A DNA stretch of 64,000 nt from an uncultured Myxococcales bacterium. GTDB taxonomy: Bacteria; Myxococcota_A; Polyangia; Fen-1088. Below are positions 36,030-64,000 of this stretch, piece after piece; position 1 is the first letter of the stretch; each line of letters starts with the position of its first letter. The notes under the pieces were generated by a model. The model worked only from the letters and a program-made list of their open reading frames with translations, was not told the DNA's origin and ran no database searches. The stretch lies in NCBI GenBank assembly GCA_964546845.1, contig CAZJMY010000424.1, positions 23,672 to 87,671 of the forward strand. Reading direction: 5' to 3'. The position numbers were made by a program, and so were the translations under genes.

Positions 36030-36041
36030 AAGGACCACGCC

Positions 36042-44616: not shown

Positions 44617-45304
44617 CGGCCGCGGGCAACGGCTCACGAAACAGATCACCCTTCGATCAATTCGGAAAGCCTCGGCGCGCATCACGACCTCGAGAGAGCG
44701 AAGTACTCGGCACAATCGGGGGGCCGGTCGCGACAGCGTCTCGGTCTGGGCTGGCGTCAACCCAACGCGACGACGGATCGATAGAGCAACTGGCGATGAT
44801 GGCCAAATCACACCATCCCTTAGCCAGGACGATGCACCATCGGTTGTCGCCCATTTGAGATCTCCAAATGGCATTGAGTCGCGCGATGGAGCGGGGAGAA
44901 GGCCGCCGAAGAAGCTCCCGCGCGCCCGACGCAGGTCAACACGCACGCGCACGAATCGCACAGCGCAAGCTTGCGTGGCGAAGAATGTGCGCGCTTTCTC
45001 GCCGTAACCGGCGCGGTCACACGAGTGTGCACAGTCGATGCCAGCAGGAGCGAATCCCCGTAGACGCAGATCGTTCGTCGGGTCAACCGTGCGGGCATAC
45101 CCCGCTGCCGCGTCGGGAGTCGAGCCCGAAAGCACAGGGAATCGTCAACGACACCTCCGGTCTGCGGAACAGCGGATGCCATTGGTCCAACCGCGAGCAG
45201 GCTTGCCGAAGCGCGACGGTGATCGTGCCGTAACCCTACCGGCTACGGGGCCAGAACGCGTCCTTTGAGCCTGTGGCGCGGTCGTTGCTTCGAGGAGTCC
45301 CGTG

Positions 45305-46594
45305 ATGCACACCAAGTCGATCTCGCGCAGACGAAGTGCCGGCGCCTCGGCGTTCGTTGCGCTTCTCCTCGCATCACCCGCCGTGGCGCACGCGCAAGGC
45401 GTCGCCAAGCTCGATCCCCTCGTCGAGGAAGCCGTCAGCCATCATCCCGCGGTCCGGAGCGCCGAGCGGATCGCCGGCGCCGCGGCCGAGGTCGTCTCGC
45501 GCGAGGGCTCCCTCCCTGACCCGATGCTGTCGGGCGGCGTGCGGAATCTCCGTGTGGACAGCCCGCGACTCAGCTCCGATCCCATGAGTGGTGTCGAGAT
45601 CGCCATTACCCAGGACATCCCGTTTCCGGGGAAGCGCGCTCGGCGCGCGAGGGTCGCGAGCGCGAACGCAGATGTGGCTCGACGCGACGCCACGGCCGTC
45701 GCGGTCGGTGCGGCGCTGCGTGTGCGGCAAGCCTATTGGCGCCTTCGCTTCGCGGAAGAGGCAGAGCGGATCACGCGCGAGGGTGTGGACATTCTCGCCC
45801 ACCTCTCCGAGATCACGAAGGCGCGCGTCTCCGTGGGGCAAGCTGCGCAGCAGGACTTCTTCCAGGCGGAGGTGGCCCGCGGGCGGGCCGTCGGGATGGT
45901 GCAGGAGCGGGCGCAAATGCTCGTCACCGCGCGCCGAGAACTCAACAGCGCCGTCGGGCGCCCACCGGAGACGCCCGTCGGGCCCACAGAAGCACCATCC
46001 GAACCTCCGCCTCTGCATCCTTCGATGATCACGGCGGCGGCCGCTCGCGCAAATCCTGAACTCCTGACCATGATCGCGCGCGCCACCGCCGCCTCTCGCG
46101 CCGTCGAGGAAGCCAGATACGATCGCTGGCCGGACCTCCAGGTCGGCGCCAGTTACATGTTTCGTGCCGCGGTTCCTGGAGATCCCGCCAACGGCGCCGA
46201 CATGTTCAGCGTCGGGATGGGCGTGACGCTGCCCTTCTGGATCGCACGCAAGCAGGACGCACACCTGCGCGAGGCTCGTGAGAGCCTCGCCGCGGCCGAA
46301 GCAGGCATCGACACGAGCGCCCTCGTCGCCGCCACGGCCGCGCAGACCGCGCTCGACGTGGTCGAGCGGCTCACCCGCGAGATCGCGTTGTTCGAAGACG
46401 AGGTGACACCAAATGCTGAGCAGGCGGTCGCGACCGGGACCGCTGACTATCGCGTAGGCAAAACCGCCTTCGTCTCACTCTTGCAAAGCTGGCAAGCGCT
46501 GCTCGATGCGCAACTCGACTCCGCCCGGCTCCGTTCCGAGCGGGCGCAGGCGCTCGCCGAAATTCAGGCGCTCACCGGAGAAGCGGCGCGGTGA
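45305..46594 (+). CDS. cusC: TolC-like outer membrane factor
   Basis: Signal peptide ending AVAHAQG. OMF repeat architecture. GTGA overlap with the next gene. Confidence 0.87.
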   Translation: MHTKSISRRRSAGASAFVALLLASPAVAHAQGVAKLDPLVEEAVSHHPAVRSAERIAGAAAEVVSREGSLPDPMLSGGVRNLRVDSPRLSSDPMSGVEIAITQDIPFPGKRARRARVASANADVARRDATAVAVGAALRVRQAYWRLRFAEEAERITREGVDILAHLSEITKARVSVGQAAQQDFFQAEVARGRAVGMVQERAQMLVTARRELNSAVGRPPETPVGPTEAPSEPPPLHPSMITAAAARANPELLTMIARATAASRAVEEARYDRWPDLQVGASYMFRAAVPGDPANGADMFSVGMGVTLPFWIARKQDAHLREARESLAAAEAGIDTSALVAATAAQTALDVVERLTREIALFEDEVTPNAEQAVATGTADYRVGKTAFVSLLQSWQALLDAQLDSARLRSERAQALAEIQALTGEAAR

Positions 46595-48042
46595 GTGACG
46601 AGAGTAACAGAGAGGATGCGAGGAAAATGACCACGACGACAACGCCTGTCTCAGGGATACATTGGTGGAGCCGCGTGCACAGTGTCGGCGCCCTTTCGAT
46701 TGGCGCGGTCCTGCTCGTCGCGGGCATCGCGATCGGCGCGAGTCTGAGCCACATCGGCAGACGGACGGTCGCGGGTGTGGGCGTACCGACCCAGAAAGAG
46801 ACAGCCATGGGACCAGCCGTCACGGCATCGGACCCTGCCTCGCCGCCGACGGCGACGAAGCCCGTCACTCGCGTCAAGATCTCTCCCGAACGCCAGCAGC
46901 TCATCGGTGTTCGGACGGCGATCGTGGGCGCCTCAGTTGCGGAGGGGACGATCCGCACCGTCGGCATCCTCGCCTACGACGAGACCAAGGTGACCGAGAT
47001 GCATGCCAAGGTGGCGGGCTGGGTGGAGAAGGTCAACGTCGATTACGTCGGCAAGTCGGTGCGGAAGGGCGATCCGCTGCTCTCGCTCTACAGCCCTGAC
47101 CTGGTCGCCGCCCAGCTCGACTACCTCGTGTCACTGAAGAGCGTGGGAGGGAAGGTTGCGACGCCGACATCGGTCGGCCGACACCTCGACCATTCGCTCA
47201 CCGAAGCAAGCCGGATGCGGCTCAAGCTGCTCGACATGACGGACGCTCAGATCGCAGACCTCGAGCGGACGGAGCGTCCATCCAGGACTGTGACGCTGTA
47301 CTCGCCGTTCTCCGGCGTCGTGATCGAGCGCAAGGCTTTCTCCGGGCAGTACATCACGCCGGATATGGCGACGGTGAAGATCGGGGATCTCACGACGATC
47401 TGGGCGATCGCCCAGGTGTACGAATACGAGATCGGCAAGGTGAAGATCGGTGACGTCGCGGAGGTTCAGTTCCCCTACGAACAGGCGAAGCCGGTGGCGG
47501 GACGAGTGAGCTTCATCTACCCGGACGTCGATCCGCATACGCGCACGGCGCGGGTCCGCGTCGCGTTCCGCAACCCGGGCGTGAAGCTCAAGCCGGAATC
47601 GTTCGTGACGATCACTCTTCACGCCGCGGGTAAGTCTCGGCTCTCCGTGCCGAGAGAAGCGGTGATCGACACCGGCCCCAGGCAATACGTCCTGATGGCG
47701 CTGCCCGACGGCTACTTCGAGCCCCGAGACGTCTCGGCCGGCGAGCCCGAGGGTGACTCCATCCCGATCTCGGCTGGCCTCGTCCCTGGCGAGCGCGTGG
47801 TCACGTCGGCGCAGTTCTTGATTGATTCGGAGACGAACCTCCAGGCCGCGATGCAGTCGATGTCGATGACGATGCCTGGAATGAAGACGGACGAGAAATC
47901 CCCCGGGGACGACATGAGGGGGATGGACATGAGCAAGGGGACCGGCACGAAACCAAGCTCTGCACCAGTGCCTGGAGACGACATGAAGGGAATGGACATG
48001 GGGCCTGCCACGCCGGCGCGAACGGGAACGGATCGCAGATGA
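46591..48042 (+). CDS. cusB: RND membrane fusion protein with Met-rich C-terminal tail
   Basis: MFP core (GTIRTVGILAYDETKV...LYSPDLVAAQ...). Tail with MQSMSMTMPGM and a duplicated GDDM(R/K)GMDM. ATGA overlap with the RND gene. Confidence 0.9.
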   Translation: MSDESNREDARKMTTTTTPVSGIHWWSRVHSVGALSIGAVLLVAGIAIGASLSHIGRRTVAGVGVPTQKETAMGPAVTASDPASPPTATKPVTRVKISPERQQLIGVRTAIVGASVAEGTIRTVGILAYDETKVTEMHAKVAGWVEKVNVDYVGKSVRKGDPLLSLYSPDLVAAQLDYLVSLKSVGGKVATPTSVGRHLDHSLTEASRMRLKLLDMTDAQIADLERTERPSRTVTLYSPFSGVVIERKAFSGQYITPDMATVKIGDLTTIWAIAQVYEYEIGKVKIGDVAEVQFPYEQAKPVAGRVSFIYPDVDPHTRTARVRVAFRNPGVKLKPESFVTITLHAAGKSRLSVPREAVIDTGPRQYVLMALPDGYFEPRDVSAGEPEGDSIPISAGLVPGERVVTSAQFLIDSETNLQAAMQSMSMTMPGMKTDEKSPGDDMRGMDMSKGTGTKPSSAPVPGDDMKGMDMGPATPARTGTDRR

Positions 48043-51000
48043 TCAAGAAGCTGATCGCGTTTTCGGCGCGGAGCCCGTTCGTCGTCGTCCTATTGATGGT
48101 CGTCATCGTGGGCGCCGGCGTGTGGGCGATTCGCCATACACCGATTGACGCGATCCCGGATCTCTCGGATGTGCAGGTCATCGTGACGACTAACTGGGAG
48201 GGCCGCAGCCCGACGCTGGTCGAGGACCAGGTCACTTACCCCATCGTGACCGCCCTGCTGTCGGCGCCGCGGGTGAAGGTGGTCCGCGGGTTCTCGTACT
48301 TCGACATCTCGTTCGTCTACGTCATCTTCGAGGACGGCACCGATCAGTATTGGGCCCGCTCGCGTGTCCTCGAGTACTTGAACGGCTTGCAAGGCCGCCT
48401 CCCGGCCGGCGCACAGCCCGTGCTCGGACCGGACGCGACCGGCGTCGGCTGGGGATTCGAATACGCGCTCGTCGACAAGACCGGAAAGCATGATCTCGCC
48501 GAGCTCCGGACGCTGAACGACTGGTACGTGCGCTATTGGCTGCGATCTGTGACTGGCGTGGCCGACGTCGCCCCGGTGGGTGGTTTCGTCAAGCAGTATC
48601 AGATCGAGATCGATCCGAACGCGCTGCTCGCCTACAACGTGCCCATCGATCGCGTGATCGCGGCCGTGCGGAAGAGCAACAACGATGTCGGTGGGCGCGT
48701 GGTCGAGTGGACCGGCCACGAGTACATGGTGAGAGGTGAAGGTTACGTCAAGAACGTGGCCGATCTCGAGCAGGTGGGCCTCGGGGCGAAGCCGGACGGC
48801 ACGCCCATCCTCGTGAAGAACATCGCACGCGTTCACCTCGGGCCGGAGATGCGCCGAGGGGTAGCCGAGCTCGACGGTCAAGGCGACGCGGCCGGCGGCA
48901 TCGTCGTCATCCGGTCGGGCGTCGACACCTACGGTGTGCTGTCCGCGATCAAGAAGGCAATCAGAGAAAAGATCCAACCAGCCCTTCCTCCGGGCGTAAA
49001 GCTGGTCACCACCTACGATCGCTCGCAGCTCATCGAGCGGTCGATCGAGACCCTCAAGGGGAAGCTGATCGAGGAGATGGCGATCGTTTCGCTGGTGTGC
49101 ATCGTCTTCCTCTGGCATTTCCGCAGCGCGCTTGTCGCGATCCTGACGCTTCCCTTGGCGCTCTTGCTCGCCTTTGTCGCCATGCGCCTCGTGGGCCTCG
49201 GTTCGAACATCATGAGCCTGGGCGGAATTGCGATCGCCATCGGCGCGATGATCGACGCCGCGATCATCATGATCGAGAACGCCCACAAGCACATCGAGCA
49301 CGCGGGCGACACGAAACCTCGGCGTGAGATCCTCATCGAGGCGGCTCAGGAGGTGGGGCGGCCGCTCTTCTTCTCGCTCCTCATCATCACGGTGTCGTTC
49401 CTGCCCATCTTCACTCTGGAGGCGCAAGAGGGCCGCCTCTTCAAGCCGCTCGCCTTCACGAAGACGTTCTCGATGGGGTTCGCGGCGCTGACCTCGGTGA
49501 TGATCGTCCCGTTCTTGATGGTGCTGTTCATCAGGGGGCGGATCCCTCGCGAGGACAGCAACCCCGTGAACCGATTACTCATCTGGGCGTATCACCCGTT
49601 CGTCAGGCTGGTCCTCCGTCATCGCGCGCTCACGCTGCTTGCGGCGGCTGTGCTCCTCGGCAGCACCGTGCCGGTGATCATGAAGCTCGGCTCGGAGTTC
49701 ATGCCGCCGCTCTATGAGGGGACGCTGCTCTACATGCCGCTCACCCTCCCGGGCGCTTCGGTGGCGACGTCGCAGCAGATCCTGGCGCTACAAGACAAGC
49801 TCATCAAGGAGATCCCCGAAGTGGCGTCGGTGTTCGGTAAGGCCGGCCGCGCCGAGACGGCCACTGACCCGGCGCCGCTCGAGATGATCGAAACGGTCAT
49901 CAACCTCAAACCCGAGTCGGAATGGCGCCCTGGGATGACCCCCGACAAGGTCGTCGCGGAGCTCGACAAGAGGGTACGAGTGCCCGGCGTCGCCAATGCC
50001 TGGACCATGCCCATCAAGGCGCGCGTCGACATGCTCTCGACAGGTATCAGGACGCCCGTTGGAATCAAGATCTTCGGGCCGACCCTCGAGACGATCAACG
50101 ACATCGGGGCGCAGATCGAGGGGGCGCTCGGTTCGGTACGCGGGACCCGCAACGTCTTTTCCGAGCGGGTCACCGGCGGCTACTACGTCGACTTCAAGGT
50201 GAGACGCGACCAGATCGCGCGTTACGGCCTCACGGTCGAGGACGTGGAGATGGTGATCGAGTCGGCGATCGGCGGCGCCAACGTGACTACGACCATCGAG
50301 GGGCGCGAGCGCTACCCGGTGAACGTACGCTACCAGCGCGCCTACCGGACCGACGTCAAGGCGCTGAAGAGGACGCTCATCGCCGCTGGCGACGGCACGC
50401 AGATCCCTCTCGAGCAGGTCGCCGACATCAGCCTCAGCACCGGACCGACCGTGATCCGGACCGAGCAGGCGCAGCTTCTCGGGTACGTCTACGTCGACGT
50501 GTCCGATCGCGACATCGGAGGGTACGTAAACGACGCCAAGCAAGCCGTGGCGAGAATGGTGAAGCTGCCGACCGGCTATACGCTGGAATGGAGCGGGCAG
50601 TACGAGTACATGCTTCGCGCCAAGGAGCGCCTCAAGGTCGTCATTCCGATCACCCTGCTCGCCGTCATCGTGCTTCTCTACTTCAACACGCGCAACGTCG
50701 CCAAGATCGTCATCGTCCTTCTCGCCGTGCCCTTCTCGTTGATCGGCGCTTTCTGGGTGGTTTATCTGCTCGGCTACAACCTGAGCGTTGCCGTCTGGGT
50801 TGGCTTCATCGCGCTGGCCGGAGTCGACGCCGAGACCGGCGTGGTTATGCTGCTTTACCTCGACGCCGCTTACGATCGCGCGAAGAGCGAGGACCGGATG
50901 AACGGCCTTCGCGATCTCCAGCTCGCAGTCGAGGACGGGGCCGTCAAGCGCATCCGACCCAAGATGATGACGGTCATGGCGATCCTGATGGGGCTCCTGC

Positions 51001-51182
51001 CCATCATGTGGAGCAGGGGCGCGGGTGCCGACGTCATGAAGCGGATAGCCGCGCCCATGGTGGGTGGGGTCGTGACGTCGTTCATCTTGGAGCTGCTGAT
51101 CTACCCCGTGATCTTCACGCTCTGGAAGAAGCGGGAAGTGCTGGCGCGGCAGCGTCAGACGAGCAATGGCGGTGAGCCGTGA
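48039..51182 (+). CDS. cusA: HME-RND efflux pump, CusA-type (1047 aa)
   Basis: TM4 signature AIGAMIDAAIIMIEN. Colinear with 15827..19636 except for that gene's insertion and extension. Confidence 0.93.
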   Translation: MIKKLIAFSARSPFVVVLLMVVIVGAGVWAIRHTPIDAIPDLSDVQVIVTTNWEGRSPTLVEDQVTYPIVTALLSAPRVKVVRGFSYFDISFVYVIFEDGTDQYWARSRVLEYLNGLQGRLPAGAQPVLGPDATGVGWGFEYALVDKTGKHDLAELRTLNDWYVRYWLRSVTGVADVAPVGGFVKQYQIEIDPNALLAYNVPIDRVIAAVRKSNNDVGGRVVEWTGHEYMVRGEGYVKNVADLEQVGLGAKPDGTPILVKNIARVHLGPEMRRGVAELDGQGDAAGGIVVIRSGVDTYGVLSAIKKAIREKIQPALPPGVKLVTTYDRSQLIERSIETLKGKLIEEMAIVSLVCIVFLWHFRSALVAILTLPLALLLAFVAMRLVGLGSNIMSLGGIAIAIGAMIDAAIIMIENAHKHIEHAGDTKPRREILIEAAQEVGRPLFFSLLIITVSFLPIFTLEAQEGRLFKPLAFTKTFSMGFAALTSVMIVPFLMVLFIRGRIPREDSNPVNRLLIWAYHPFVRLVLRHRALTLLAAAVLLGSTVPVIMKLGSEFMPPLYEGTLLYMPLTLPGASVATSQQILALQDKLIKEIPEVASVFGKAGRAETATDPAPLEMIETVINLKPESEWRPGMTPDKVVAELDKRVRVPGVANAWTMPIKARVDMLSTGIRTPVGIKIFGPTLETINDIGAQIEGALGSVRGTRNVFSERVTGGYYVDFKVRRDQIARYGLTVEDVEMVIESAIGGANVTTTIEGRERYPVNVRYQRAYRTDVKALKRTLIAAGDGTQIPLEQVADISLSTGPTVIRTEQAQLLGYVYVDVSDRDIGGYVNDAKQAVARMVKLPTGYTLEWSGQYEYMLRAKERLKVVIPITLLAVIVLLYFNTRNVAKIVIVLLAVPFSLIGAFWVVYLLGYNLSVAVWVGFIALAGVDAETGVVMLLYLDAAYDRAKSEDRMNGLRDLQLAVEDGAVKRIRPKMMTVMAILMGLLPIMWSRGAGADVMKRIAAPMVGGVVTSFILELLIYPVIFTLWKKREVLARQRQTSNGGEP

Positions 51183-53517
<2,335 letters not shown>

Positions 53518-53521
<4 letters not shown>

Positions 53522-53799
53522 CCCCGGAGCGACAAGATGGCGACCTCAAGCGTGCGGTGGAGCGACGCCGGGCCCGCCGCGACCGATGGCTGCGCGAGGG
53601 CGAGCGGCCGCTCGCGCGCAACCTGGCTCTCGTCGGGACGCTCGGGTGGCTCATCGTCGTCCCGGCGCTCCTCGGCGCGCTGGCGGGTCACGCCCTCGAT
53701 CGTCGCGCTGGCACCGGGGTGACGTTCACGTCCGCGCTCATCTTCGCTGGTGTTGCGATCGGGTGCTGGCTCGCCTTCAGCCACGTGAGGCGCTCATGA
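53518..53799 (+). CDS. atpQ: AtpQ (AtpI-like) small membrane protein of N-ATPase operons
   Basis: 93 aa with an Arg-rich N-terminus and two TM helices. Assigned by position between atpC and atpR. Confidence 0.65.
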
Positions 53800-54080
53800 C
53801 GATCAAGGCTGTGCTGGTCGCGCTCCTGTTCGCCTTCGGCGGGTTCGGTGTCGGTCTCGCGCACCTGGCCACACTGCGCGGCAACCTGCGCCTTTATCTC
53901 GACGGAGGGGTGCGTGTCGCGGCGGTGGCAGCTCACGTCGCCCGCCTCGCGCTCTTGGCCACTGTCTGGATCGTCGCAGCGCGCGTCAGTGGCGCCGTCG
54001 GGCTGCTCGCAGGTTTCGCCGGCTTCCTTCTGGCCCGGCTGGCCGTCACCTCCCGGATGAACATGAGGGAACGGCGATGA
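53796..54080 (+). CDS. atpR: AtpR small membrane protein of N-ATPase operons
   Basis: ATGA overlap. 94 aa with three hydrophobic segments and embedded Arg ([12 protein letters not shown]). Assigned by position before atpB. Confidence 0.65.
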
Positions 54081-54751
54081 GCCGAGCTTCTCCCCTCGAG
54101 ACGGAGATCTTGTTCCACCTGGGCTCGATCCCGATTGCGCGTCCAGTGGTGACGACGTTCGCGATCACCCTCTTGCTTGGTCTCGGCAGCTGGGCGGTCA
54201 CTCGTCACATGCGGGTCGCGCCTGGTCGTTCGCAGGCGGTGCTCGAAGCGGTCGTGACCTGGATCGGCGATCAAGTGCAGGAGATCGTGCGGCGCGATCC
54301 GACGCCGTTCGTCCCGCTGCTTGGAACTTTGTTCCTGTACATAGCGGTCGCGAACTTGTCGGCGGTCCTACCCGGGGTGAAGTCCCCGACCGCGAGCATC
54401 GAGACGCCGGCGGCGCTGGCCATCGTGGTCTTCTTTGCGGCCCATGCCTACGGGATCCGGGCGCAAGGGGTGAAGCGCTATTTTGCCTCGTACCTCGAGC
54501 CCAATCCCCTGCTCTTGCCCCTCAACATCGTCTCGGAGATCACGAGGACATTCTCGCTCATGGTCCGGCTCTTCGGAAACATGATGAGCCACGAGCTGGT
54601 GCTCGGAATCGTGGCCACCATCGCCGGCCTCCTCGTGCCGATTCCCTTCATGGCGCTGGGGATCCTGGTGGGGGTCATCCAGGCATACATCTTTTCGATC
54701 TTGGCAACCGTGTTCGTGGGCGCGGCCGTAGGGGCCGTCGAGAAAGGATAG
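54077..54751 (+). CDS. atpB: ATP synthase a subunit
   Basis: ATGA overlap. Conserved stator Arg region [14 protein letters not shown]. Five or six TM helices. Confidence 0.87.
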
Positions 54752-54756
54752 AGAAA

Positions 54757-54999
54757 ATGACCGTTCAAGTGATCAGCGTGATTTGTGCAACCGTCGCCGT
54801 GTCGATCGGCGCCATCATCCCGCCTCTTGCAGAGGGGCGCGCTATCGTCGCAGCGCTGGAGGCCATCGCCCGCCAGCCCGAGGCGCAGGGGCCCCTGTCA
54901 CGGACCCTGTTCGTCGGCCTCGCGATGATCGAGACGATGGCGATCTATTGCCTCGTCGTGGCGCTGCTGCTGCTCTTCGCGAACCCCTACGCCCGTTAA
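54757..54999 (+). CDS. atpE: ATP synthase c subunit (proteolipid)
   Basis: 80-aa helical hairpin with ARQPE loop. Helix-2 carboxylate in [11 protein letters not shown] and an additional helix-1 Glu in PPLAEGRA. Confidence 0.88.
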
Positions 55000-55018
55000 G
55001 GGCGATCCCGGATACACC

Positions 55019-55756
55019 ATGAGCGGGTGGACCCTAGTCTTCCAGATCGTGAACTTCGTGGTCCTCGCGGCCGTGCTCCGCCGTTTCCTGTTCAAACCGG
55101 TTGCCGCCATGGTTGCGAAGCGCCAGCAGAATCTGGCGGCCACCGCCGCGGAGGGGGAGCGCGTTCGCCGTGAGGCCGAGGCGCTTCGTCTCAACGCCGA
55201 CAAGGCCCTCGCCGAGGCGGTCGAGATCCGCGAGCGAGCGCTCGCCGAGGGGCGGGCGCAGATAGCGCGAGAGCGGGAGGAGACCCTCGCGAAGGCTCGG
55301 CAGGAGGCGAGCAGCACCCTCGACGTGGCCAGGCACGAGATTGATCGCGAGCGCGACAAGGCGGCCGACGCCGCCGCGACCGGGGCGTTGGATCTGGCCG
55401 CCGTGATCGCGCGACGGTTGCTCGAGCAGGTCTCCGCGACGTCGTTGGTCGACGCATTCCTCGCCCGGCTCTGCGAGCACCTCGACGGCGCCTCCGAAGA
55501 GAGCAAGCGCGCGCTGCGCGACGATCTCGGCGCCCGCGAGCTCCTCGTGGCGACGGCGCCCCCGCTCGGCCCCGACGCCGGCCCACGGTGGCGCGCGGAC
55601 ATCGCGCGGCGTCTCGGCGACGGGGTCGCCATAAGGCTCGTCGCCGACGACGCCCTGGTGGCCGGCGCCGAGCTGCGCTTCCCGCACACGACACTCTCTT
55701 TCTGCTGGCGCGATGGCATTAAGGCCGCACGCGAGGAGTTGGCGCGCCATGCCTAG
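55019..55756 (+). CDS. atpF: ATP synthase b subunit (long, 245 aa)
   Basis: N-terminal TM helix followed by an Ala/Arg/Glu-rich long helix. Assigned by operon position. Confidence 0.72.
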   Translation: MSGWTLVFQIVNFVVLAAVLRRFLFKPVAAMVAKRQQNLAATAAEGERVRREAEALRLNADKALAEAVEIRERALAEGRAQIAREREETLAKARQEASSTLDVARHEIDRERDKAADAAATGALDLAAVIARRLLEQVSATSLVDAFLARLCEHLDGASEESKRALRDDLGARELLVATAPPLGPDAGPRWRADIARRLGDGVAIRLVADDALVAGAELRFPHTTLSFCWRDGIKAAREELARHA

Positions 55757-57275
55757 CGTTACCGAACAGGTTGTCGGGCGCCTCGAGCGGGCGCGTGCGG
55801 CCGCCGAAGGTCTGACAACCGAGCCGGTCGAGCGCGAGCGCGGCACCGTCGAGACCGTGGGTGCGGGGGTGGTCACCGTCTCCGGGCTCCCCAGCACGCG
55901 TCTCGATGAGATCCTCCGCCTGTCCGGCGACAGCTACGCGATGGCGGTCGTGCTCGACGTCGATCGAATCGGCGCCGTGCTCCTCGATCGCGCCGACACC
56001 GTCACCGCCGGCGGGGAGGTCAGCGGCACCGGCGAGGTCCTCCGGGTGCCGGTCGGCGAGGGGCTGCTCGGTCGGATCGTCGATCCGCTCGGCCGGCCGC
56101 TCGACGGCGGCCCTGCGATCGAGGCGGTCCGGCGCGATCCCATCGAGCGTCCGGCACCCACGATCATCGAGCGGGACCTCGTGACCGAGCCCTTGCACAC
56201 GGGCCTCTTGGTGGTCGATGCGATGATCCCCATCGGGCGCGGGCAACGCGAGCTCATCATCGGGGATCGGGTGACGGGCAAGACGCAGGTGGCGTTGGAC
56301 GCGGTGCTGGCGCAGCGAACGTCGGACGTGGTGTGCGTCTACGCCGCGGTAGGGCAGAAGGCATCCGCGATCGGACGTCTGATCGAGGAGGTCAAGGCCT
56401 CGGGACCGTTCGATCGCTGCATCTTCGTCGTGGCAGAGGCCGACGACCAGCCCGGCATGCAATGGATCGCTCCCTACGCCGCCTGCACGATGGCGGAGTA
56501 CTTCCGCGACCGCGGCGGCCACGCGCTGCTCATCATCGACGACCTGACGAAGCACGCGATCGTCCACCGCGAACTCTCGCTCTTGCTCCGGAACCCTCCC
56601 GGCCGTGAAGCCTACCCGGGCGACGTCTTCTATCTCCACGCGCGCCTACTCGAGCGCGCCGCCAAGCTGTCGAAGGAGAGGGGCGGCGGCTCGCTCACCG
56701 CGCTGCCGATCGCCGAGACGCAGGGCGGGAACATGAGCGCATACATTCCGACCAACCTCATTTCGATCACCGATGGGCAGATCTACCTCGAGACCAAGTT
56801 GTTTCACGAGGGACAGAAGCCGGCCGTCAATGTGGGCAAGAGCGTCAGTCGCGTGGGGGGTAAGACCCAGCCTCACGCTATTCGCTCCCTCGCCGGGAGC
56901 CTGCGCCTCGACTACGCGCAGTTCCTAGAGTTGGAGGTGTTCGCTCGATTCGGCCAGGTCCTCGACCCCCGAACCGAGCAGGCCCTCGACCGCGGGCGCC
57001 GGATCCGCGCGGCCCTCGAGCAGCCGCAGTCCGAGCCGCATGCGCTGGTGACTGAGGCGGCCATCCTCGTCGCGGTCCGGGAGGGGGTGCTCGACGGACT
57101 ACCTCTTCCCAAAGTGGCGCCCTTCATGCGAGCGCTGGGATCAGATCTGAGCACATGGGAGCCTGGCCTCGTCGAGCGCGTCGAGCACACGGGCCGCCTC
57201 GACGAGCCGGATCGCACCCGCATTGTCGACTGGCTCCGCCGGCGGGCGCAGGCAATTGCGAAGGGCGGAGGCTAG
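55749..57275 (+). CDS. atpA: ATP synthase alpha subunit
   Basis: The ATG at 55749 overlaps the atpF end. Walker A GDRVTGKTQVAL. Alpha-type core. Confidence 0.92.
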   Translation: MPSVTEQVVGRLERARAAAEGLTTEPVERERGTVETVGAGVVTVSGLPSTRLDEILRLSGDSYAMAVVLDVDRIGAVLLDRADTVTAGGEVSGTGEVLRVPVGEGLLGRIVDPLGRPLDGGPAIEAVRRDPIERPAPTIIERDLVTEPLHTGLLVVDAMIPIGRGQRELIIGDRVTGKTQVALDAVLAQRTSDVVCVYAAVGQKASAIGRLIEEVKASGPFDRCIFVVAEADDQPGMQWIAPYAACTMAEYFRDRGGHALLIIDDLTKHAIVHRELSLLLRNPPGREAYPGDVFYLHARLLERAAKLSKERGGGSLTALPIAETQGGNMSAYIPTNLISITDGQIYLETKLFHEGQKPAVNVGKSVSRVGGKTQPHAIRSLAGSLRLDYAQFLELEVFARFGQVLDPRTEQALDRGRRIRAALEQPQSEPHALVTEAAILVAVREGVLDGLPLPKVAPFMRALGSDLSTWEPGLVERVEHTGRLDEPDRTRIVDWLRRRAQAIAKGGG

Positions 57276-57277
57276 CG

Positions 57278-58132
57278 ATGGAGCGCGCGTCCGAGCTGCA
57301 AGGCCGAATCCACAACCTCGAAGAGCTGGGGGAGGTCGTTGGCGCGCTGCGCTCGGTGTCGGCGGCGCGTGTTCAGCAGGCGCACGGGATCCTCGATGCC
57401 GTTCGCCAATACACCTCGATAATCCAGGACGCGCTCGGTGAAGCGACCCGTGGTCCTTCGCTCCCGCCCCGCGCCGCTGAGGGTTTCGAGACGACAGGCC
57501 TCGTCGTCGCGTTCGGCTCGGAGCATGGTTTTGTCGGCGCCTTCAACGACCGCATCCTCGAGCACGCCGCGATCCAGCGCAGGCCCGGTGACGGCCTCCT
57601 GGTCGTCGGATCGCGGGCCGTGCTGGCCGCCAACGAACGTCGCGAGGTGATCGCCTGGAGCTGTCCCATGGCGTCCCAGGTCGGCGGGCTCGATGAGGTC
57701 GCGCTCCAGGTGGCGGAGGAGCTCGGGCGCAGCGGCGCAGAGCGCGAGCCAGGACGCGTGATTCTCGTCTATACCCGCAGCTCGGGCGGTCCAACCTGGC
57801 GAATCGTCACCGAGACCCTGCTTCCTGTCGACATTCGCGCCTATTCGCCGACTCGGCTGGATCGACCTATGGCGCTCTCGAACCTTCCGGCGCGGCTCCT
57901 GATAGACGGTCTGGTCGGCGAGCTGCTATTCGCCCAGCTCGCCCATGCCGCCACCGAGTCCTTCGCCAGCGAGAACGCCGCCCGGCTCGCCGCCATGGAG
58001 TCCGCGACCGACAACATCGAGGACAAGCTCGGTGGCCTCGGTCGTATCGAGCGCGAGCTTCGGCAGGAAGAGATCACTACCGAGCTGCTGGACATCGTAA
58101 CTGGAGCCGAGGCGATCGGCGAGGAGCACTGA
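57278..58132 (+). CDS. atpG: ATP synthase gamma subunit
   Basis: ATG at 57278, 2 nt after the atpA stop. N-terminal (RIHNLEELGEVVGALRSVSAARV) and C-terminal (QEEITTELLDIVTGAEA) coiled-coil helices. Confidence 0.85.
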   Translation: MERASELQGRIHNLEELGEVVGALRSVSAARVQQAHGILDAVRQYTSIIQDALGEATRGPSLPPRAAEGFETTGLVVAFGSEHGFVGAFNDRILEHAAIQRRPGDGLLVVGSRAVLAANERREVIAWSCPMASQVGGLDEVALQVAEELGRSGAEREPGRVILVYTRSSGGPTWRIVTETLLPVDIRAYSPTRLDRPMALSNLPARLLIDGLVGELLFAQLAHAATESFASENAARLAAMESATDNIEDKLGGLGRIERELRQEEITTELLDIVTGAEAIGEEH

Positions 58133-58133
58133 G

Positions 58134-59975
58134 ATGAAAGATCCCGTCTGTGGCATGCCTGTCGAACCGACGACGCCGTTCCGCGCCTCGTGGGAAGGCA
58201 GCGACTACTACTTCTGTTCGGCCCTGTGCCGGGAGGCTTTTCTCTCCCGACCGGGCGAAACGATCCCCCGCGAGCTTCCTTCGCCGGCCGCGGAGAACCG
58301 CGCCTCGAGGCGCGTCGCGTATCTGACCATGGAGATCGCCCTCGATTCCCGGATGGCGACTTACAGCGGGGGCCTCGGCGTCCTCGCGGGCGACACAGTC
58401 CGCGCCGCCGCCGATCTCGGCGTGCCCCTCGTGGCCGTCACGCTCCTCTATCGCGATGGCTATCTCGCGCAGTCAATCGATCCTGCTTCCGGCCAGCAGG
58501 AAACTCCCGAGCGCTGGCCCTTCGGAGAGTTTCTGCAACCGCTGGCAGAGACCGCCGAGGTCACGATCGACGGTCGCGCGGTCCGCGTGCGGGCGTGGCG
58601 GTACGATGTGGTCGGGGTCGCTGGGGCCAAGTGCCCCGTCCTGTTCCTCGATACCGAGCTTCCCGAGAACGATCCGCTCGATCGGGCGCTCTGCGGCCGG
58701 CTCTACTCGGGAGACGATCGGTACCGTCTGGCCCAGGAGGTGGTGTTGGGCGTCGGCTCGGTCCGCGTCCTGGATGCCCTGGGCTACTCCGGTATCGACC
58801 GCTATCACATGAACGAAGGCCACGCCGCGCTCGCGCCGCTCGAGCTGGCGCGTCGCCTGAATGCCGGGCGACCCGAGATGGAGTGGCGCTTCGATGACGT
58901 CCGCCGTCGCTCGGTCTTCACCACGCACACGCCCGTCGCGGCGGGCCACGACCACTTCTCACGGGAAATCGCGCAGCGCGTGCTCGGGGGAATGGTGCCA
59001 CCGCGGGTGTTGGAAATGCTGGGTGGCGACGGACAGCTCGACATGACCTCGTTGGCCCTGAATCTGTCGGGATACGTCAACGGCGTCGCACGCAAACACG
59101 CCGAGATCTCCCGCCAGATGCACCCCGGGTACGGCATCCATCACATCACGAACGGCGTCCACTCGAAGACCTGGACGGCGACCGCGTTTAGGGCGCTCTA
59201 CGATCGCCACCTGCCAGGCTGGGACGGCGACCCGTCGATGTTGCGGAACGCGATCGCCCTTCCGTCCGAGGAGGTGTGGCAGGCCCACCTGACCAGCAAG
59301 GCCGAGCTGATCGAGGTCGTTCGTCGGCTGACCGGCACGAATCTCGACGCGGGCGCGCTGACCATCGGGTTCGCGCGGCGAGCGACCCAGTATAAAAGGG
59401 CCGATCTGGTGTTCGACGATCTGCCGCGTCTTCGCGAGATCGCGCGGCGGCGGCCGGTCCAACTGGTCTTCGCGGGCAAAGCGCATCAACGCGACGACGA
59501 AGGGAAGCGTATCATCAGGCGCATTCTCGAGATCGGGCGCGAGCTGGGACGCGACGTGCCGGTCGTGTACCTGCCCAACTACGACACGGCGCTCGCGCGA
59601 GCCGTCGTCGCCGGGGTGGACGTCTGGCTCAACACGCCGCAAAGGCCCCTCGAGGCATCGGGCACGTCCGGAATGAAGGCTGCCCACAACGGCGTTCCGA
59701 GCCTGAGCGTGCTCGACGGCTGGTGGATCGAGGGCTGCGTCGAGGGTGTGACCGGCTGGGCGATTGGCGATCTCCGCCCACCCGGCGATCCGAACGAGGA
59801 TCGCCGGAGCGAGGCGCAGGATCTGCTGACGAAGCTCGACAGGCAGATCCTGCCCGCCTACTACGACGAACGGGAACGCTGGATCTCGATCATGCGCCAC
59901 GTGATCAGCCTGAACGCGTCGTTCTTCAACACGCACCGCATGGTCCAGCAGTACGTGACCAACGCCTATATCTGA
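58134..59975 (+). CDS. glgP: alpha-glucan phosphorylase (GlgP family) with N-terminal YHS/TRASH metal-binding domain
   Basis: N-terminus [10 protein letters not shown]...[12 protein letters not shown]. Core YLTMEIAL...[11 protein letters not shown]...LLYRDGY and PLP-Lys motif [14 protein letters not shown]. Starts 1 nt after the atpG stop. Confidence 0.87.
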
Positions 59976-59990: not shown

Positions 59991-60356
59991 TCACTCGACC
60001 ATGATCGCGCCGCCGTGCATCTTCATGCTGCACGCGAAGCCGCGCTCGCCCGATTTGGCGAACGTGACCGCCACCTCCACCGGCTGATTGAGCGGGAGCT
60101 TCCGGGACACAGTCTTGTCGTCGTCGAGATAGATGACGACGTCCTTCGCGCAGGTGTGGTCCGTACGCCGCGTGAACACAAGCGTTACCGGCTCACCCTT
60201 CTTGACCGCAAGCCGCTTCGGCGAGAAGCCCTCCTCGGTCACGCTGATCTCGATCCGTCTCGCCGCCTTGTCCCCCCCGAGGAGCGCGCCGCTCCGGAGA
60301 GAATAGGCCGCAGCCAGGAGCAGGACGAAGACGCGGGCGTAAGCGTGAGTTCTCAT
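59991..60356 (-). CDS. cupredoxin-like periplasmic protein (paralogue of 15347..15817)
   Basis: ATG at 60356. 121 aa with signal peptide. [35 protein letters not shown]...[11 protein letters not shown]. The 464-aa track ORF is an extension. Confidence 0.7.
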
Positions 60357-60476
60357 GTCGGCCTCCCGCGCGATTGTGGATCGAAACGGGAGTGGTGTCT
60401 GCCACGAGCGGTCGCCTGTGACTCCAACGGTTACATTGTCCTTCCAAAACGACCTCCGTAGACTGCTTGGCCTGCA

Positions 60477-60959
60477 ATGACGACGACCACCCGCTTCGGG
60501 ATGTTGACCGAGCACCTTCACCGTGGGCCCCTGTGGCTCGCGCTCTGCCTTGCGAGGCCTGGCGCGGCTCTCGGCCACCTTGGGCACTCGCACGCGCCGC
60601 TGATCAAACGCACGGCCGAAGAGATCGCGGCATTCAAGGCAGCCGAGCCCGTGTTCGCGCAATACTGCTATCGATGCCACACCCACTCCGGCAAGAAATC
60701 GAAACCCAAGGCGCTCGCTCACCTCGACATGGATCAGTACCCATTCGGCGGCCATCACGCAGGCGAGGCGGCCGCCGTCATCCGGAAGGTCTTGGGCGCG
60801 ACCGGCGTGAAGGCCACGATGCCCTCCGACGATCCGGGCGCCGTCTCCGGCGACGCGCTCGCGAAGATTCTCGCCTGGGCAGACGCCTTCGATCGCGCCC
60901 ACCCGAGCGACGCCCCCGCGAAGCCGACCCATCGCCACAGCCATGAGGATTTGAAGTGA
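60477..60959 (+). CDS. c-type cytochrome-like protein (PSCyt1-like CxxCH domain) with His-rich C-terminus
   Basis: EPVFAQYCYRCHTHSGKKSKPKALAHLDMD ... ATMPSDDPGAVSGDALAKILAWADA. C-terminus HRHSHEDLK. Confidence 0.55.
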   Translation: MTTTTRFGMLTEHLHRGPLWLALCLARPGAALGHLGHSHAPLIKRTAEEIAAFKAAEPVFAQYCYRCHTHSGKKSKPKALAHLDMDQYPFGGHHAGEAAAVIRKVLGATGVKATMPSDDPGAVSGDALAKILAWADAFDRAHPSDAPAKPTHRHSHEDLK

Positions 60960-61381
60960 GCCGTGCGCCGGGCACCTTCGTGGTGGGCTTGGCTCTGGCG
61001 ATGAGCTGCGCCTCGCAGCCGCCGCCGCGCCCCGTGGCGGTCGACCCCTCGAACCCATCCGCGCCGGAGGCGCCGCCCCTCGAGACGTCGAACGTACTCG
61101 CCCCCGTGCCATCACCGACGCCGGAGGCCCATCCTGCGCAGCCCGACGGTGCAGCTGCTGGGTTGCCGGCGCCGATGCCCGAGCACCATCACGGCGCCAC
61201 GGCGAGGGAGGCTGGCGGCGGAGACCATCAGATGGAAGCGCCTCGGGCCCCTGCCTCCGAGTCTCCCGCAACCGTCTACACGTGCCCCATGCATCCCGAG
61301 GTGATTTCGGCCGAGCCCGGCTCGTGCCCGAAGTGCGGGATGAAGCTCGTCCCGAAGCGAGCGACCGAGGGCAAACAGTGA
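60956..61381 (+). CDS. lipoprotein with Pro-rich linker, His cluster and C-terminal HMBD module
   Basis: GTGA overlap. Lipobox-like LALAMSC. PEHHHG. YTCPMHPEVISAEPGSCPKCGMKLVPK. Confidence 0.65.
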   Translation: MSRAPGTFVVGLALAMSCASQPPPRPVAVDPSNPSAPEAPPLETSNVLAPVPSPTPEAHPAQPDGAAAGLPAPMPEHHHGATAREAGGGDHQMEAPRAPASESPATVYTCPMHPEVISAEPGSCPKCGMKLVPKRATEGKQ

Positions 61382-62787
61382 CCAAGGCGCGCGCGTTCGC
61401 GCTCGCCGCGCTCGTCGGTGCCGGTTGTGCGAGCGTTTCGCCCGAGCGGGGTCATGACCGGGTCTCGGCGATCGTCGGCGAGCGCACGGGCCATAAGACC
61501 CGATGGGAGAAGGGGCCTCCCGATGATGCTCGGATCGCCGACTGGGTGCGCGACCTCGCCTCCAAGGGGCTGACCCGCGCGCGCGCCGTCGAGATCGCGT
61601 TGGTGAACAACCCGGGCCTTCAGGTCACGTACGAAGAGCTGGGAGTTTCGCAGGCCGACATGGTGCAAGCCGGTCTCCTGCGGAACCCGACCTTCGGCGC
61701 CGAGCTCGGGTTTCGGCTCAACAACGGCGCCAACGACGAGCTCCGCCTCTCGCTGGTCCAGGACTTCCTCGACCTCTTCGTCCTGCCGCTTCGCAAGGAG
61801 ATCGCCGGAGAGCAGTTCGAGGCCGACACCTTGAACGTGGCCAGCCGAGCGCTGGAAGTGGCGGCCGACGTAGAGAAAGCTGTCATCGCTGTCCAAGCGA
61901 GCGTCGAATTGGTCGCGTTTCGGCGAACCGTCGTCGACGCCGCCGCCGCGACCGCCGATCTGGCGGAGCGCCAGCTCCAGGCCGGGAACATCAGCGAGCT
62001 CGAGCGAGCGACGCAATCCGCGACCTGGCAGCAGGCCAAGCTGGATCTGGCGCGGGACGAGGTCGAGCTACTCGAAGGGCGCGAGCGCATCAACCGCCTT
62101 CTTGGGCTATGGGGCGAGACCACCCGATGGCGCTTCGCCGAGTCGCTCTCTCCCCTCCCGGCGGCCGATCCGAAGCTCGACTACCTCGAATCCTTCGCGA
62201 TGCGCCAGCGGCTCGACGTCGCTGTGGCCAGCCGGCGCGTGGCGCTGCTTTCGAAAGCGGTCGGCCTCGCGCGCAGCACCCGTCTGGTCGGCCGCCTCGA
62301 CGTGGGTGTGGACATGCACCATGACCCGAACGGCCCGCGACTGCTTGGACCGAACCTGGTCATCGAGCTCCCGATTTTCGACCAGAGGCAGGCGGTCATC
62401 GCTCGGCTCGAGGCGCAACGACGGGAGCAGCAGCGGAGGCTCGACGAGGTCGCCGTCGACGCCCGTTCGGAGGTCAGGCTGGCGGCCGTAAAGCTGCAGG
62501 CCGCCCGGCAGACCGCCGCTCACTACCGTGACGTGCTCGTCCCGTTGCGACAGACCATCTCCGAGCAGGCGCTCCTGCACTACAACGGGATGTTCATCAG
62601 CGTCTTCCAGCTCCTCGCCGCGAAGCAAGGCGAGGTCGACGCGCGCCGCGGGTACCTCGAGGCGCTGCGAGACTACTGGAGCTCTCGGGCCGAGCTGGCG
62701 CGAGCGGTAGGTGGAGCCCTCCCGCCGGCAGAGCGCACCGCGCCCACGAAGAGCGATCAGGAAGGACAGCGTCACGATGGACCGTGA
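61378..62787 (+). CDS. outer membrane factor lipoprotein (NodT/TolC-like)
   Basis: GTG start in a GTGA overlap. Lipobox LVGAGC. OMF repeat architecture. Confidence 0.85.
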   Translation: MTKARAFALAALVGAGCASVSPERGHDRVSAIVGERTGHKTRWEKGPPDDARIADWVRDLASKGLTRARAVEIALVNNPGLQVTYEELGVSQADMVQAGLLRNPTFGAELGFRLNNGANDELRLSLVQDFLDLFVLPLRKEIAGEQFEADTLNVASRALEVAADVEKAVIAVQASVELVAFRRTVVDAAAATADLAERQLQAGNISELERATQSATWQQAKLDLARDEVELLEGRERINRLLGLWGETTRWRFAESLSPLPAADPKLDYLESFAMRQRLDVAVASRRVALLSKAVGLARSTRLVGRLDVGVDMHHDPNGPRLLGPNLVIELPIFDQRQAVIARLEAQRREQQRRLDEVAVDARSEVRLAAVKLQAARQTAAHYRDVLVPLRQTISEQALLHYNGMFISVFQLLAAKQGEVDARRGYLEALRDYWSSRAELARAVGGALPPAERTAPTKSDQEGQRHDGP

Positions 62788-64000
62788 GAAGAAGAGCGAT
62801 CTGATGAGCCGCCGCGCGCTCCTGCTGGCCGGAGGCGCCGGCGGCACGGTGCTGGCGGCGGCCGGTGCGTCCCGGGCCGCCGAGGTGGCGGCCGCCGCCC
62901 ACCCGCATCCCGCACCGGGGACGCGCAATGCCTCCGCGCGGGCGCTTCCGCCGGGGCGACCAGGACACGATTACCTCCCCGTGACAGTTCCGAACGGCTC
63001 GAAGTTGCCCTGGAAGATCGTCGACGGCGTCAAGGTGTTTCACATGGTGGCCGAAGAGGTCGACCACGAGCTCGCCCCCGGGTTGAAGGTCCGGTGCTGG
63101 GGCTACAACGGCCGGGTTCACGGACCGGTCATCGAGGCGGTCGAATTCGATCGCGTGCGTATCTACGTCACGAACCGACTCGCGGCCCCGACGACCGTGC
63201 ACTGGCACGGGATCCTGCTGCCAAACGGGATGGACGGCGTTGGCGGGCTCACCCAGAAGGCGATTCAGCCCGGCGAGACGTTCAAGTACGAGTTCACGCT
63301 GCACCAGACGGGCACGGGGATGTACCACTCGCACCACGACGAGATGACCCAGATCGCGCTGGGGCTCACGGGCCTCATCGTCATCCATCCGCGCCACGCG
63401 CGCCGGCGCGTCGACCGGGACTTCGCCCTTCTGCTTCACGAATGGCGTATCGATCCAGGCGCCAAGCGCCCGAACCCGAACGAGATGACCGAGTTCAACA
63501 TGCTCACCATGAACGCCAAAGCCTTCCCCGGCACCGCGCCGCTCGTGGTCCGGACCGGCCAGCGTGTCCGGGTGCGCATCGGCAATCTATCTCCGATGGA
63601 TCACCACCCGATCCACCTCCACGGCTACCAGTTCCGGATCACCGAGACTGACGGCGGTGAGATCGCCGATTCGGCGCAATGGCCCGAGACGACGGTGCTG
63701 GTCCCCGTGGGCAGCACGCGGACGATCGAGCTCGTCGCCGACGAGCCCGGCGACTGGGCGATGCACTGCCACATGACCCACCACGTGATGAACCAGATGG
63801 GGCACGGCGTCCCCAATCTCATCGGCGTCGAGCCCGGAACGCTCGACGAGCACGTACGCAAGGTCGTTCCCGGTTACATGACCATGGGCCAGACGGGAAT
63901 GGCGGACATGGGCGACATGGGCATGCCGGTGCCCCCCAACAGCATCCCGATGCTCGGGGGCAAGGGAAAGCACGACACCATCACCATGGGTGGCATGTTT
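62777..64000 (+). CDS. multicopper oxidase (CopA/CueO-like), TAT signal, 3-prime partial
   Basis: Translated by hand; not in the ORF track because no stop occurs before the window end. MSRRALLLAGG twin-Arg signal. HWHG, YHSHH, HPIHLHG, HCHMTHH copper sites. Met-rich C-terminal region. Confidence 0.88.
   Translation, partial: MDREKKSDLMSRRALLLAGGAGGTVLAAAGASRAAEVAAAAHPHPAPGTRNASARALPPGRPGHDYLPVTVPNGSKLPWKIVDGVKVFHMVAEEVDHELAPGLKVRCWGYNGRVHGPVIEAVEFDRVRIYVTNRLAAPTTVHWHGILLPNGMDGVGGLTQKAIQPGETFKYEFTLHQTGTGMYHSHHDEMTQIALGLTGLIVIHPRHARRRVDRDFALLLHEWRIDPGAKRPNPNEMTEFNMLTMNAKAFPGTAPLVVRTGQRVRVRIGNLSPMDHHPIHLHGYQFRITETDGGEIADSAQWPETTVLVPVGSTRTIELVADEPGDWAMHCHMTHHVMNQMGHGVPNLIGVEPGTLDEHVRKVVPGYMTMGQTGMADMGDMGMPVPPNSIPMLGGKGKHDTITMGGMF

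Follow-up and report, generated by a model that had tools for sequence, protein, structure and literature searches.

Control through the N-terminus is well known among the phosphorylases of the GT35 family: mammalian glycogen phosphorylase is regulated by phosphorylation of Ser14 and through a site for adenosine monophosphate (AMP), and E. coli GlgP is regulated by HPr. To our knowledge, no metal-binding regulatory domain has been described on a GT35 phosphorylase. The complex of E. coli GlgP with HPr is available as Protein Data Bank (PDB) entry 9s8k, according to its title in our Foldseek listing. Here, we describe an alpha-glucan phosphorylase with an N-terminal YHS domain, encoded in a stretch of 64,000 nucleotides (positions 23,672 to 87,671 of contig CAZJMY010000424.1, assembly GCA_964546845.1; hereafter, the window) from an uncultured Myxococcales bacterium, where its gene appears to close a copper/silver efflux operon.

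The only YHS sensor on an enzyme that has been tested is that of the class IIIc adenylyl cyclase of Mycobacterium phlei, which responds to 1-10 µM Cu2+ by switching on, but not if it lacks its YHS domain (Linder 2015, PMC4626032); otherwise, metal binding by YHS domains is undemonstrated (PMC4626032). In Synechocystis, high copper represses the housekeeping glgP and glgX genes along with genes of glycolysis and photosynthesis (PMC4182526). The DUF2933 and ICMT genes are published companions of the copA-cupredoxin copper islands of Alteromonas, and the full text of that description, which we searched, does not mention a phosphorylase (PMC8478169). Metal resistance is usually framed as sensing, efflux, oxidation and sequestration, and the energy cost of efflux is rarely addressed, as is the question of how cells pay for efflux while copper harms respiration and represses central metabolism.

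The reading that we favour, tentatively and by analogy, is that the YHS domain acts as an N-terminal switch that responds to copper, and that the phosphorylase under its control mobilises glycogen in metal stress, most likely feeding pumps driven by adenosine triphosphate (ATP). It draws on the gene context and on the precedent of the M. phlei cyclase, while metal binding, activation and the use of glucose-1-phosphate for ATP are its inferred parts. Asp3, Cys6, Cys28 and Cys32 of the tethered YHS domain would bind a soft metal, copper being the likeliest, and copper or silver bound there would turn the phosphorylase on, a post-translational second key on top of copper-induced transcription. 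Glycogen would then be converted to glucose-1-phosphate at a time when normal energy metabolism is impaired, and glucose-1-phosphate would yield ATP for the pumps, which are the N-ATPase and CopA in the window and P-type ATPases in its relatives; CusCBA, driven by the proton motive force, would also need energy. The breakdown of stored sugar may in this way be tied to metal stress. What is new here as observation is the main clade of fusion proteins, the enrichment of metal genes at their loci, the plasmid arrays, a cassette swap, and a nested relative that has no YHS domain and stands in a housekeeping context.

The open reading frame (ORF; for coordinates, see Table 1) matches the Pfam YHS family PF04945 above its gathering score at residues 1-40 (E 1.3e-9, 38.4 bits vs 30.3), and the Phosphorylase family PF00343 (E 2e-24); Pfam also returns a weak zf-FCS match. 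The NCBIfam model TIGR02094, 'alpha-glucan family phosphorylase', covers residues 61-612 over positions 1-598 of its 600 (E 2e-161, 538.6 bits vs a cut-off of 191.7). The initial annotation of the window, made from the letters alone, had proposed a YHS domain fused in frame to a complete enzyme with the motif of the lysine that binds pyridoxal phosphate (PLP), and both points are borne out by these matches and by the intact K515 in EASGTSGMK. Its label of GlgP family holds insofar as this is a complete GT35 phosphorylase, but the classical GlgP/MalP model TIGR02093 reaches only 75.4 bits against its cut-off of 552.9, which places the protein in the short 'other' phosphorylase subfamily and not with classical GlgP. 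The DUF3417 N-domain, which the initial annotation had named among the architectures to look for, is absent from the protein. The proposed CGM...C..C pattern was right as to the CGM and the Cys module but not as to the spacing, which is CxxxC (C6-x21-C28-x3-C32, with D3 ahead), and the interval given for it, 58134-58270, covers the YHS domain and also takes in part of the linker. The suggested likeness to the N-terminus of CopA is real: the CopA encoded in the window has the same DPVCGM...FCxxxC module.

The start codon at 58134 is sound. This ATG is the first start codon past the in-frame stop and lies 1 nt 3' of the TGA that ends the atpG-like gene. Of the later in-frame Met residues, the first is that of CGM (M8), a start at which would truncate the YHS domain, and the second, M66, lies inside the catalytic core. 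A DNA pattern for the fusion (CGM-18 aa-FCxxxC-25..35 aa-AYxxME) gives one match in the window and none in 100 shuffles. That the fusion is an annotation artefact, translation beginning downstream so that the fusion protein is never made, is hardly credible. Some database entries do begin at the internal Met of CGM or lack YHS, but an alignment of 39 homologues shows that the matches of 599-600 aa listed without PF04945 begin precisely at the Met of CGM and so reflect miscalled start codons within a conserved domain; moreover, the ATG at 58134 is the earliest start in frame, and purifying selection on the YHS domain is evident across more than 100 orthologues. We rejected the artefact on the ribosome-binding site (RBS), the first-in-frame ATG and the conserved module in the alignment: with orthologues that retain YHS and an RBS in place, the start at 58134 survives the downstream alternative that the initial annotation had itself raised.

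In the same alignment, K515, R415/R416, Y420, K421, R422, H230, N227 and E507 are invariant, and E507-A-S-G-T-S-G-M-K515 aligns to EASGTSGEK of the Segatella copri glycogen phosphorylase 9l6i. The block R415-R422 and H230, the histidine of NEGH, are phosphate/glucose-site residues and presumably correspond to R569/Y573/K574/R575/H377 of the rabbit enzyme. The Segatella protein is the closest solved relative both by sequence (32% identity, phmmer E 6e-91) and by structure, being the top Foldseek match of an AlphaFold2 (AF2) model (E 3e-40); the model has the GT-B phosphorylase fold, and its top 50 matches are all glycogen, maltodextrin or starch phosphorylases with template-modelling (TM) scores of 0.69-0.77. 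The mean predicted local distance difference test score (pLDDT) of the model is 83, with about 85 for the YHS domain and about 51 for residues 41-50. These features are best explained by a predicted active short-form alpha-glucan (glycogen/maltodextrin) phosphorylase.

The N-terminal module follows the consensus DP[VI]CGM..V....L.....G....FCS..C...F...P in the 39-homologue alignment. Its Cys residues are conserved in all full-length matches of the homology search, M8, F27, F36 and P40 are likewise conserved in the alignment, and the Asp at -3 from the first Cys is invariant in 108 non-redundant loci collected with a pattern that did not impose it. The linker from C32 to the AY motif measures 28-29 residues in 103 of the 108 loci, where the pattern permitted 25-35. 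The YHS domain carries an Asp and three Cys that we propose as metal ligands, and a role as sensor may be assigned to it by analogy only.

The fusion is widespread. A homology search of 5.8 billion proteins returned 8000 scored relatives, and about 105 of the best 120 clusters, which we inspected, combine PF04945 with PF00343 (55-95% identity, full coverage); they come from Myxococcota/'Deltaproteobacteria', Acidobacteriota, Cyanobacteria and Ramlibacter. The module DP[VI]CGM...FCxxxC opens more than 100 full-length homologues, which represent at least four phyla. The DNA pattern located the fusion in at least 120 metagenome contigs, and it is present on 5 cyanobacterial plasmids, where RefSeq labels the genes 'glgP: alpha-glucan family phosphorylase' with no mention of the YHS part. 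The fusion is common in databases, and what is new is a described function, not its existence: in the literature searched we found no description of a YHS- or TRASH-phosphorylase fusion or of a link between a phosphorylase and copper, in agreement with the earlier statement that no characterised example was known.

In a tree of the catalytic part (167 rows), 63 of the 70 rows with YHS fall into one clade (support 98) with zero YHS-less rows inside, and the YHS label changes 4 times vs about 53 in shuffles. A second tree, built with a mixture model, nests two YHS-less proteins of Kofleriaceae type, P0089 and P0116, in the YHS clade (Shimodaira-Hasegawa-like approximate likelihood ratio test, SH-aLRT, 97), which implies secondary loss of the domain, and leaves a few fusions (Ignavibacteriales, Brocadiaceae and a 'CHM' variant) outside the main clade, which implies further gains or several losses. 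P0116 (L242:8001-9698; here and below, numbers with L are our handles for related loci) is 63% identical to the window protein and represents a natural domain-loss variant; its neighbours are housekeeping genes (fumarase, M48 peptidase, kinase, PhoD), with no metal genes nearby. Among 401 genomes of the phylum of the window, 176 have a phosphorylase relative and 2, the window genome and G173, have the full-length fusion, and the mixture-model tree places the phylum's own phosphorylases in distant clades. Vertical inheritance in this phylum was therefore rejected, and the gene must have reached this genome by transfer and not by descent. Besides the fusion, the window genome, a fragmented metagenome-assembled genome (MAG), carries several TIGR02094 genes plus a single match that stays below the cut-off, and none of these coincides with a YHS match; it holds five YHS domains in all.

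All genes from 45302 to 59975 lie on the + strand, and the phosphorylase is the last of them, its RBS lying inside atpG. A scan of 44500-61500 found no terminator-like site at the atpG-phosphorylase junction. It returned 9 such sites vs 6.6 expected by chance; one is a hairpin with a T-rich tail at 58217-58233 (+), inside the YHS coding region, which, given these numbers, we judged to be a chance occurrence and not a real terminator. The 1-nt gap and the shared direction are best explained by the phosphorylase being the last gene of a copper/silver efflux operon, and by its spacing it would belong to the cus/N-ATPase transcription unit. As the last gene of a CsoR-like/cusCBA/N-ATPase operon, it would be expressed at high copper.

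The company of metal genes is not limited to the window. We compared 107 non-redundant YHS loci, from which the loci that had supplied the markers were left out, with 105 loci of YHS-less short-form relatives that came from an alignment-based contig scan; markers were located by tblastn within 6 kb, and fractions were calculated over loci with at least 6 kb of flank (42 YHS and 67 YHS-less). Any metal marker was found at 28/42 (67%) of the YHS loci and at 16/67 (24%) of the YHS-less ones (p 1.8e-5), a comparison to be read with the caveats that the YHS and YHS-less loci were drawn from different collections, that flanks are shorter in the YHS set, that the contigs are partial and that the markers are simple. 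The strict copper set gave 43% vs 12% (p 4e-4), DUF2933/ICMT 8/42 vs 0/67 (p 3e-4), P2-type ATPases 9/42 vs 3/67 (p 0.01), and GH57/nucleoside triphosphate (NTP)-transferase 6/42 vs 1/67 (p 0.013). A check that uses no markers, in which the largest flanking ORF on each side was compared with Pfam, agrees with the metal enrichment. The 147 ORFs flanking YHS loci include E1-E2_ATPase (11), GH57 (8), ACR_tran (6), OEP (5), alpha-amylase/CBM48 (5), phosphofructokinase (PFK, 4), YHS (4), S-adenosylmethionine (SAM)-methyltransferase (4), multicopper oxidase (3) and HMBD (3), and the 150 control ORFs include flavin adenine dinucleotide (FAD) oxidoreductases, ACR_tran (4), E1-E2 (4) and GH77 (3); OEP, multicopper oxidase, HMBD and YHS are absent from the top 25 families of the control ORFs. 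Three of the 150 ORFs flanking the control loci (L008-L114) encode P-type ATPases of Cation_ATPase_N type, and the link between the phosphorylase and P2-type ATPases may predate the YHS fusion.

This association bears on a different view of the domain, in which YHS is a structural, zinc-ribbon-like (treble-clef) module that serves folding, oligomerisation or docking (to another YHS protein or a pump, for instance) without metal regulation and replaces the N-terminal domain of longer members of the family. We consider this fairly unlikely. It is true that TRASH/YHS is purely structural in ribosomal protein L24e and metal-free in toluene-4-monooxygenase (PMC4626032), that the domain gives a weak zf-FCS match, that the enzymes of Thermococcales and Segatella carry, at the position of YHS, some 95-105 additional residues at their N-terminus, and that partners for docking exist, since free YHS proteins and YHS-ATPases are frequent nearby. 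However, a structural role leaves unexplained the strong link to metal islands, as well as the clade member that has no YHS and lies outside such an island, and most short-form relatives do without any N-terminal domain.

Table 1. Coordinates in the window of the fusion gene, its parts and the surrounding genes.
Feature	Position	Strand	Basis or remark
YHS-alpha-glucan phosphorylase, whole ORF	58134..59975	+	613 aa plus stop
Shine-Dalgarno-like GAGGAG, 7 nt 5' of start codon	58121..58126	+	direct reading of the sequence
YHS domain, residues 1-40	58134..58253	+	Pfam, alignment
Candidate metal ligands D3, C6, C28, C32	C6, TGT 58149-58151; C28, TGT 58215-58217; C32, TGC 58227-58229	+	
Linker, residues 41-60	58254..58313	+	sequence variable, length tightly constrained across loci
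Catalytic GT35/TIGR02094 phosphorylase core, residues 61-612	58314..59969	+	
Codon of K515, PLP-binding lysine in EASGTSGMK	59676..59678	+	invariant alignment column
CsoR/RcnR-family repressor gene	44335..44610	+	tblastn; 98% protein identity to the gene heading the operon of L115
cusC-, cusB- and cusA-like resistance-nodulation-division (RND) efflux genes	45302..51182	+	Pfam OEP, HlyD_D23/CusB, ACR_tran
153-aa ORF between cusA and the N-ATPase beta gene	51196-51654	+	no Pfam match at E 0.001
N-ATPase operon (beta, epsilon, AtpR, a, c, b, alpha, gamma)	51654..58132	+	Pfam, including PF12966 AtpR
Downstream copper genes: cupredoxin-domain protein (-), cytochrome c-like, HMBD protein, outer-membrane factor, multicopper oxidase	59991..64000		Pfam
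YHS-CopA (P1B ATPase; 33218-35596), DUF2933 and ICMT genes of the island	33218..36722	+	

The closest relatives of the fusion show how the operon varies. In L115, L117 and L118 (95% and 64% identity), the operon consists of a CsoR-like gene (Pfam Trns_repr_metal), a P-type cation ATPase (Cation_ATPase_N/C), OEP, CusB, CusA and the YHS-phosphorylase, which begins 1-5 nt 3' of cusA. The P-type ATPase was considered as a proton pump and rejected as such, since its best scores are to PMR1/SERCA-type Ca models and stay below their cut-offs. L115, the 95% relative, matches the window at 90-93% DNA identity over the CsoR region (43258-44701), the phosphorylase (58128-59975) and the downstream copper genes (60413-63296), whereas the segment between CsoR and the phosphorylase (44701-58128 of the window vs 1431-9995 of L115) has been swapped: L115 has P-type ATPase-OEP-CusB-CusA in the slot that in the window is taken by CusC-CusB-CusA, the 153-aa ORF and a complete N-ATPase operon of nine genes. 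The two cassettes share DNA identity (68%) in cusA only, and homology returns 6 nt before the ATG of the phosphorylase. The 153-aa ORF (51196-51654) is missing from the L115 version of the operon. Two cassettes of RND efflux plus an ATP-driven cation pump in one slot make the phosphorylase part of the conserved frame, and we see in the swap the best hint from comparison that the unit requires an ATP-driven pump and that the phosphorylase serves all of the unit. A general link between the fusion and N-ATPases was rejected, as F1 alpha/beta genes lie within 6 kb of the fusion at none of the other YHS loci. In L158, two adjacent rotary-ATPase-like genes (12127-14666; about 30% identity to F1 alpha/beta, spaced like V/A-type A and B) lie 6.8 kb downstream of the YHS-phosphorylase, which is itself flanked by an NTP-transferase on its upstream side and by a small YHS protein on its downstream side.

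Elsewhere the surroundings are more diverse. L116 (82% identity) has an NTP-transferase upstream of the fusion and a CBS protein, phosphoketolase, acetate kinase, DUF2933, ICMT and HMBD-CopA downstream. In Pseudanabaena, a small YHS protein and a YHS-P1B ATPase are directly upstream and DUF2933 and ICMT downstream; in a Blastocatellales MAG, the fusion is followed by GH57, multicopper oxidase, OEP and CusB, and in G173 immediately by OEP-CusB-RND. The Ramlibacter locus L004 has no metal genes beside the fusion except for a divergent histidine kinase with an ETR1_N domain (7341-9443, -), ETR1_N being the copper-containing N-terminus of the ethylene-receptor type. Full-length fusions are also carried by large plasmids of Chroococcidiopsis, Aulosira, Stanieria (a conjugative plasmid) and Leptolyngbya boryana, within long co-directional arrays that encode HMA/YHS proteins, P1B ATPases, multicopper oxidase, DUF2933, ICMT, universal stress proteins, HtrA and MerR; a phosphoketolase gene lies directly 3' of the fusion in Leptolyngbya. 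A SAM-methyltransferase gene overlaps the start of YHS-glgP by 4 nt in L240 (Leptolyngbya boryana p1; overlap 11989-11992, region 11303-16319) and by 8 nt in L241 (Stanieria pSTA7437.01; overlap 11989-11996, region 11286-13854).

Free YHS proteins and YHS-ATPases are frequent neighbours of the fusion, and the tag occurs on other proteins beside it. Trehalose synthases of TreT type (PF21269 and Glycos_transf_1) with a C-terminal YHS are found next to YHS-phosphorylases in L198 (1106-2515, +) and L236 (1584-2987, -), which makes TreT-YHS a second sugar enzyme with the same tag. A response-regulator receiver with a C-terminal YHS (221 aa; L173:4304-4966, +) and a 223-aa protein whose sole recognisable domain is a C-terminal YHS (L169:689-1357, -) also adjoin YHS-phosphorylases.

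Some of these neighbours point to another fate for the sugar. In a second version of the copper switch, glucose-1-phosphate would go mainly into protective sugars: nucleoside diphosphate glucose (NDP-glucose) would be made from it first, and from this trehalose or an extracellular glucan as a buffer against metal and oxidative stress. NTP-transferase and GH57 genes are enriched beside the fusion (12/60 vs 1/78 at loci with at least 3 kb of flank), TreT-YHS lies beside YHS-phosphorylases, as described above, and the plasmid arrays include universal stress proteins and HtrA. The gene in the window, however, has no adjacent TreT or NTP-transferase and does have ATP-driven pumps, and the phosphoketolase, acetate kinase, PFK and phosphoenolpyruvate carboxykinase (PEPCK) neighbours seen elsewhere suggest energy. 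We regard this version as unlikely.

The energy and sugar neighbours in other loci (phosphoketolase, acetate kinase, PEPCK, PFK and GH57) were counted in favour of the proposal that copper-gated glycogen breakdown feeds the pumps. Several observations weigh against that proposal. The YHS domain of toluene-4-monooxygenase is metal-free in the crystal structure (PMC4626032). The adjacency of the N-ATPase is specific to the window and was found at no other YHS locus within 6 kb, and about one third of the long-flank YHS loci have no metal marker, the Ramlibacter locus L004 being an example. Phosphoketolase, acetate kinase and PEPCK are not enriched (1/42 YHS vs 3/67 YHS-less loci, p 1), so that their enrichment was rejected as statistically unsupported and their occurrences are anecdotes, while the neighbouring trehalose synthase-YHS and NTP-transferase suggest another use of glucose-1-phosphate. 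The linker is modelled at low confidence (residues 41-50, see above), and the enrichment of metal genes may be somewhat inflated, given that YHS loci supplied the markers and that the compared sets differ in the collections they stem from.

The sign of the effect might also be the opposite: metal may inhibit the enzyme, or the YHS may merely buffer copper or hand it over, with the use of glycogen being shut down or irrelevant under copper. The repression of housekeeping glgP by high copper in Synechocystis (PMC4182526) and the small stand-alone, chaperone-like YHS proteins of the same islands fit this view. On the other hand, it would be wasteful to co-transcribe an enzyme with copper-induced efflux and then inhibit it by copper, one site per 613-aa protein makes a poor buffer, and the sole YHS-enzyme tested is activated (PMC4626032). 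We find such inhibition or buffering quite improbable.

A broader form of the favoured reading, which we regard as rather unlikely, is that mobile copper/silver islands carry their own fuel line: a copper-gated phosphorylase would free stored glucose as copper in the cytoplasm rises and so supply ATP to a swappable, island-encoded P-type or N-ATPase cation pump, which would keep the membrane energised for CusCBA, and would sometimes be joined by the YHS-tagged trehalose synthase, phosphoketolase/acetate kinase, PFK or PEPCK. In that case, metabolic enzymes in general could be tagged for post-translational control by copper through YHS, and a physiological role would be at hand for the long-unexplained N-ATPases. 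As to the favoured reading itself, if true, it would connect a toxic-metal signal directly, at the post-translational level, to a carbon store, through an enzyme conserved as a fixed component of efflux operons and conjugative plasmids in several phyla, and would bring only the second enzyme class under demonstrated YHS control. It also offers a hypothesis for the presence of an ATP-burning N-ATPase in a copper operon. Because an orthologue is present on plasmids of cultured cyanobacteria, including Leptolyngbya boryana (WP_017292204), the proposal can be tested at the bench.

Among known phosphorylases, the window protein is most like those of Segatella copri (9l6i/20yr) and the maltodextrin phosphorylase of Thermococcales (NF041129), with which it shares the TIGR02094 subfamily, the fold, EASGTSGxK and the R..YKR site. 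These enzymes, however, have an N-terminal extension of about 100 residues that is not a YHS and a C-terminal extension of about 130, whereas the window protein is a minimal core plus YHS; with 458 bits vs the NF041129 cut-off of 1500, it is not an equivalog of the Thermococcales MalP. The mammalian and E. coli GT35 enzymes, 17-20% identical to the window protein, are regulated by phosphorylation, nucleotides or a protein partner. The DPVCGM...FCxxxC module itself is that of the N-termini of P1B copper ATPases and of stand-alone YHS/TRASH proteins, which occur in the same islands; the former carry it on metal transporters and the latter are small and chaperone-like, while here it stands on a metabolic enzyme. 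The neighbours of the fusion are the gene sets of a CusCFBA-type RND operon and of a copA-cupredoxin-DUF2933-ICMT island. The closest functional precedent is the M. phlei cyclase, likewise an enzyme with a tethered YHS in which one Asp and three Cys are the proposed ligands. The cyclase, a signalling enzyme, has its YHS at the C-terminus after an 8-residue linker, whereas the phosphorylase, known from sequence, has it at the N-terminus with a linker of about 20-29 residues and is a carbon-storage enzyme encoded in efflux operons.

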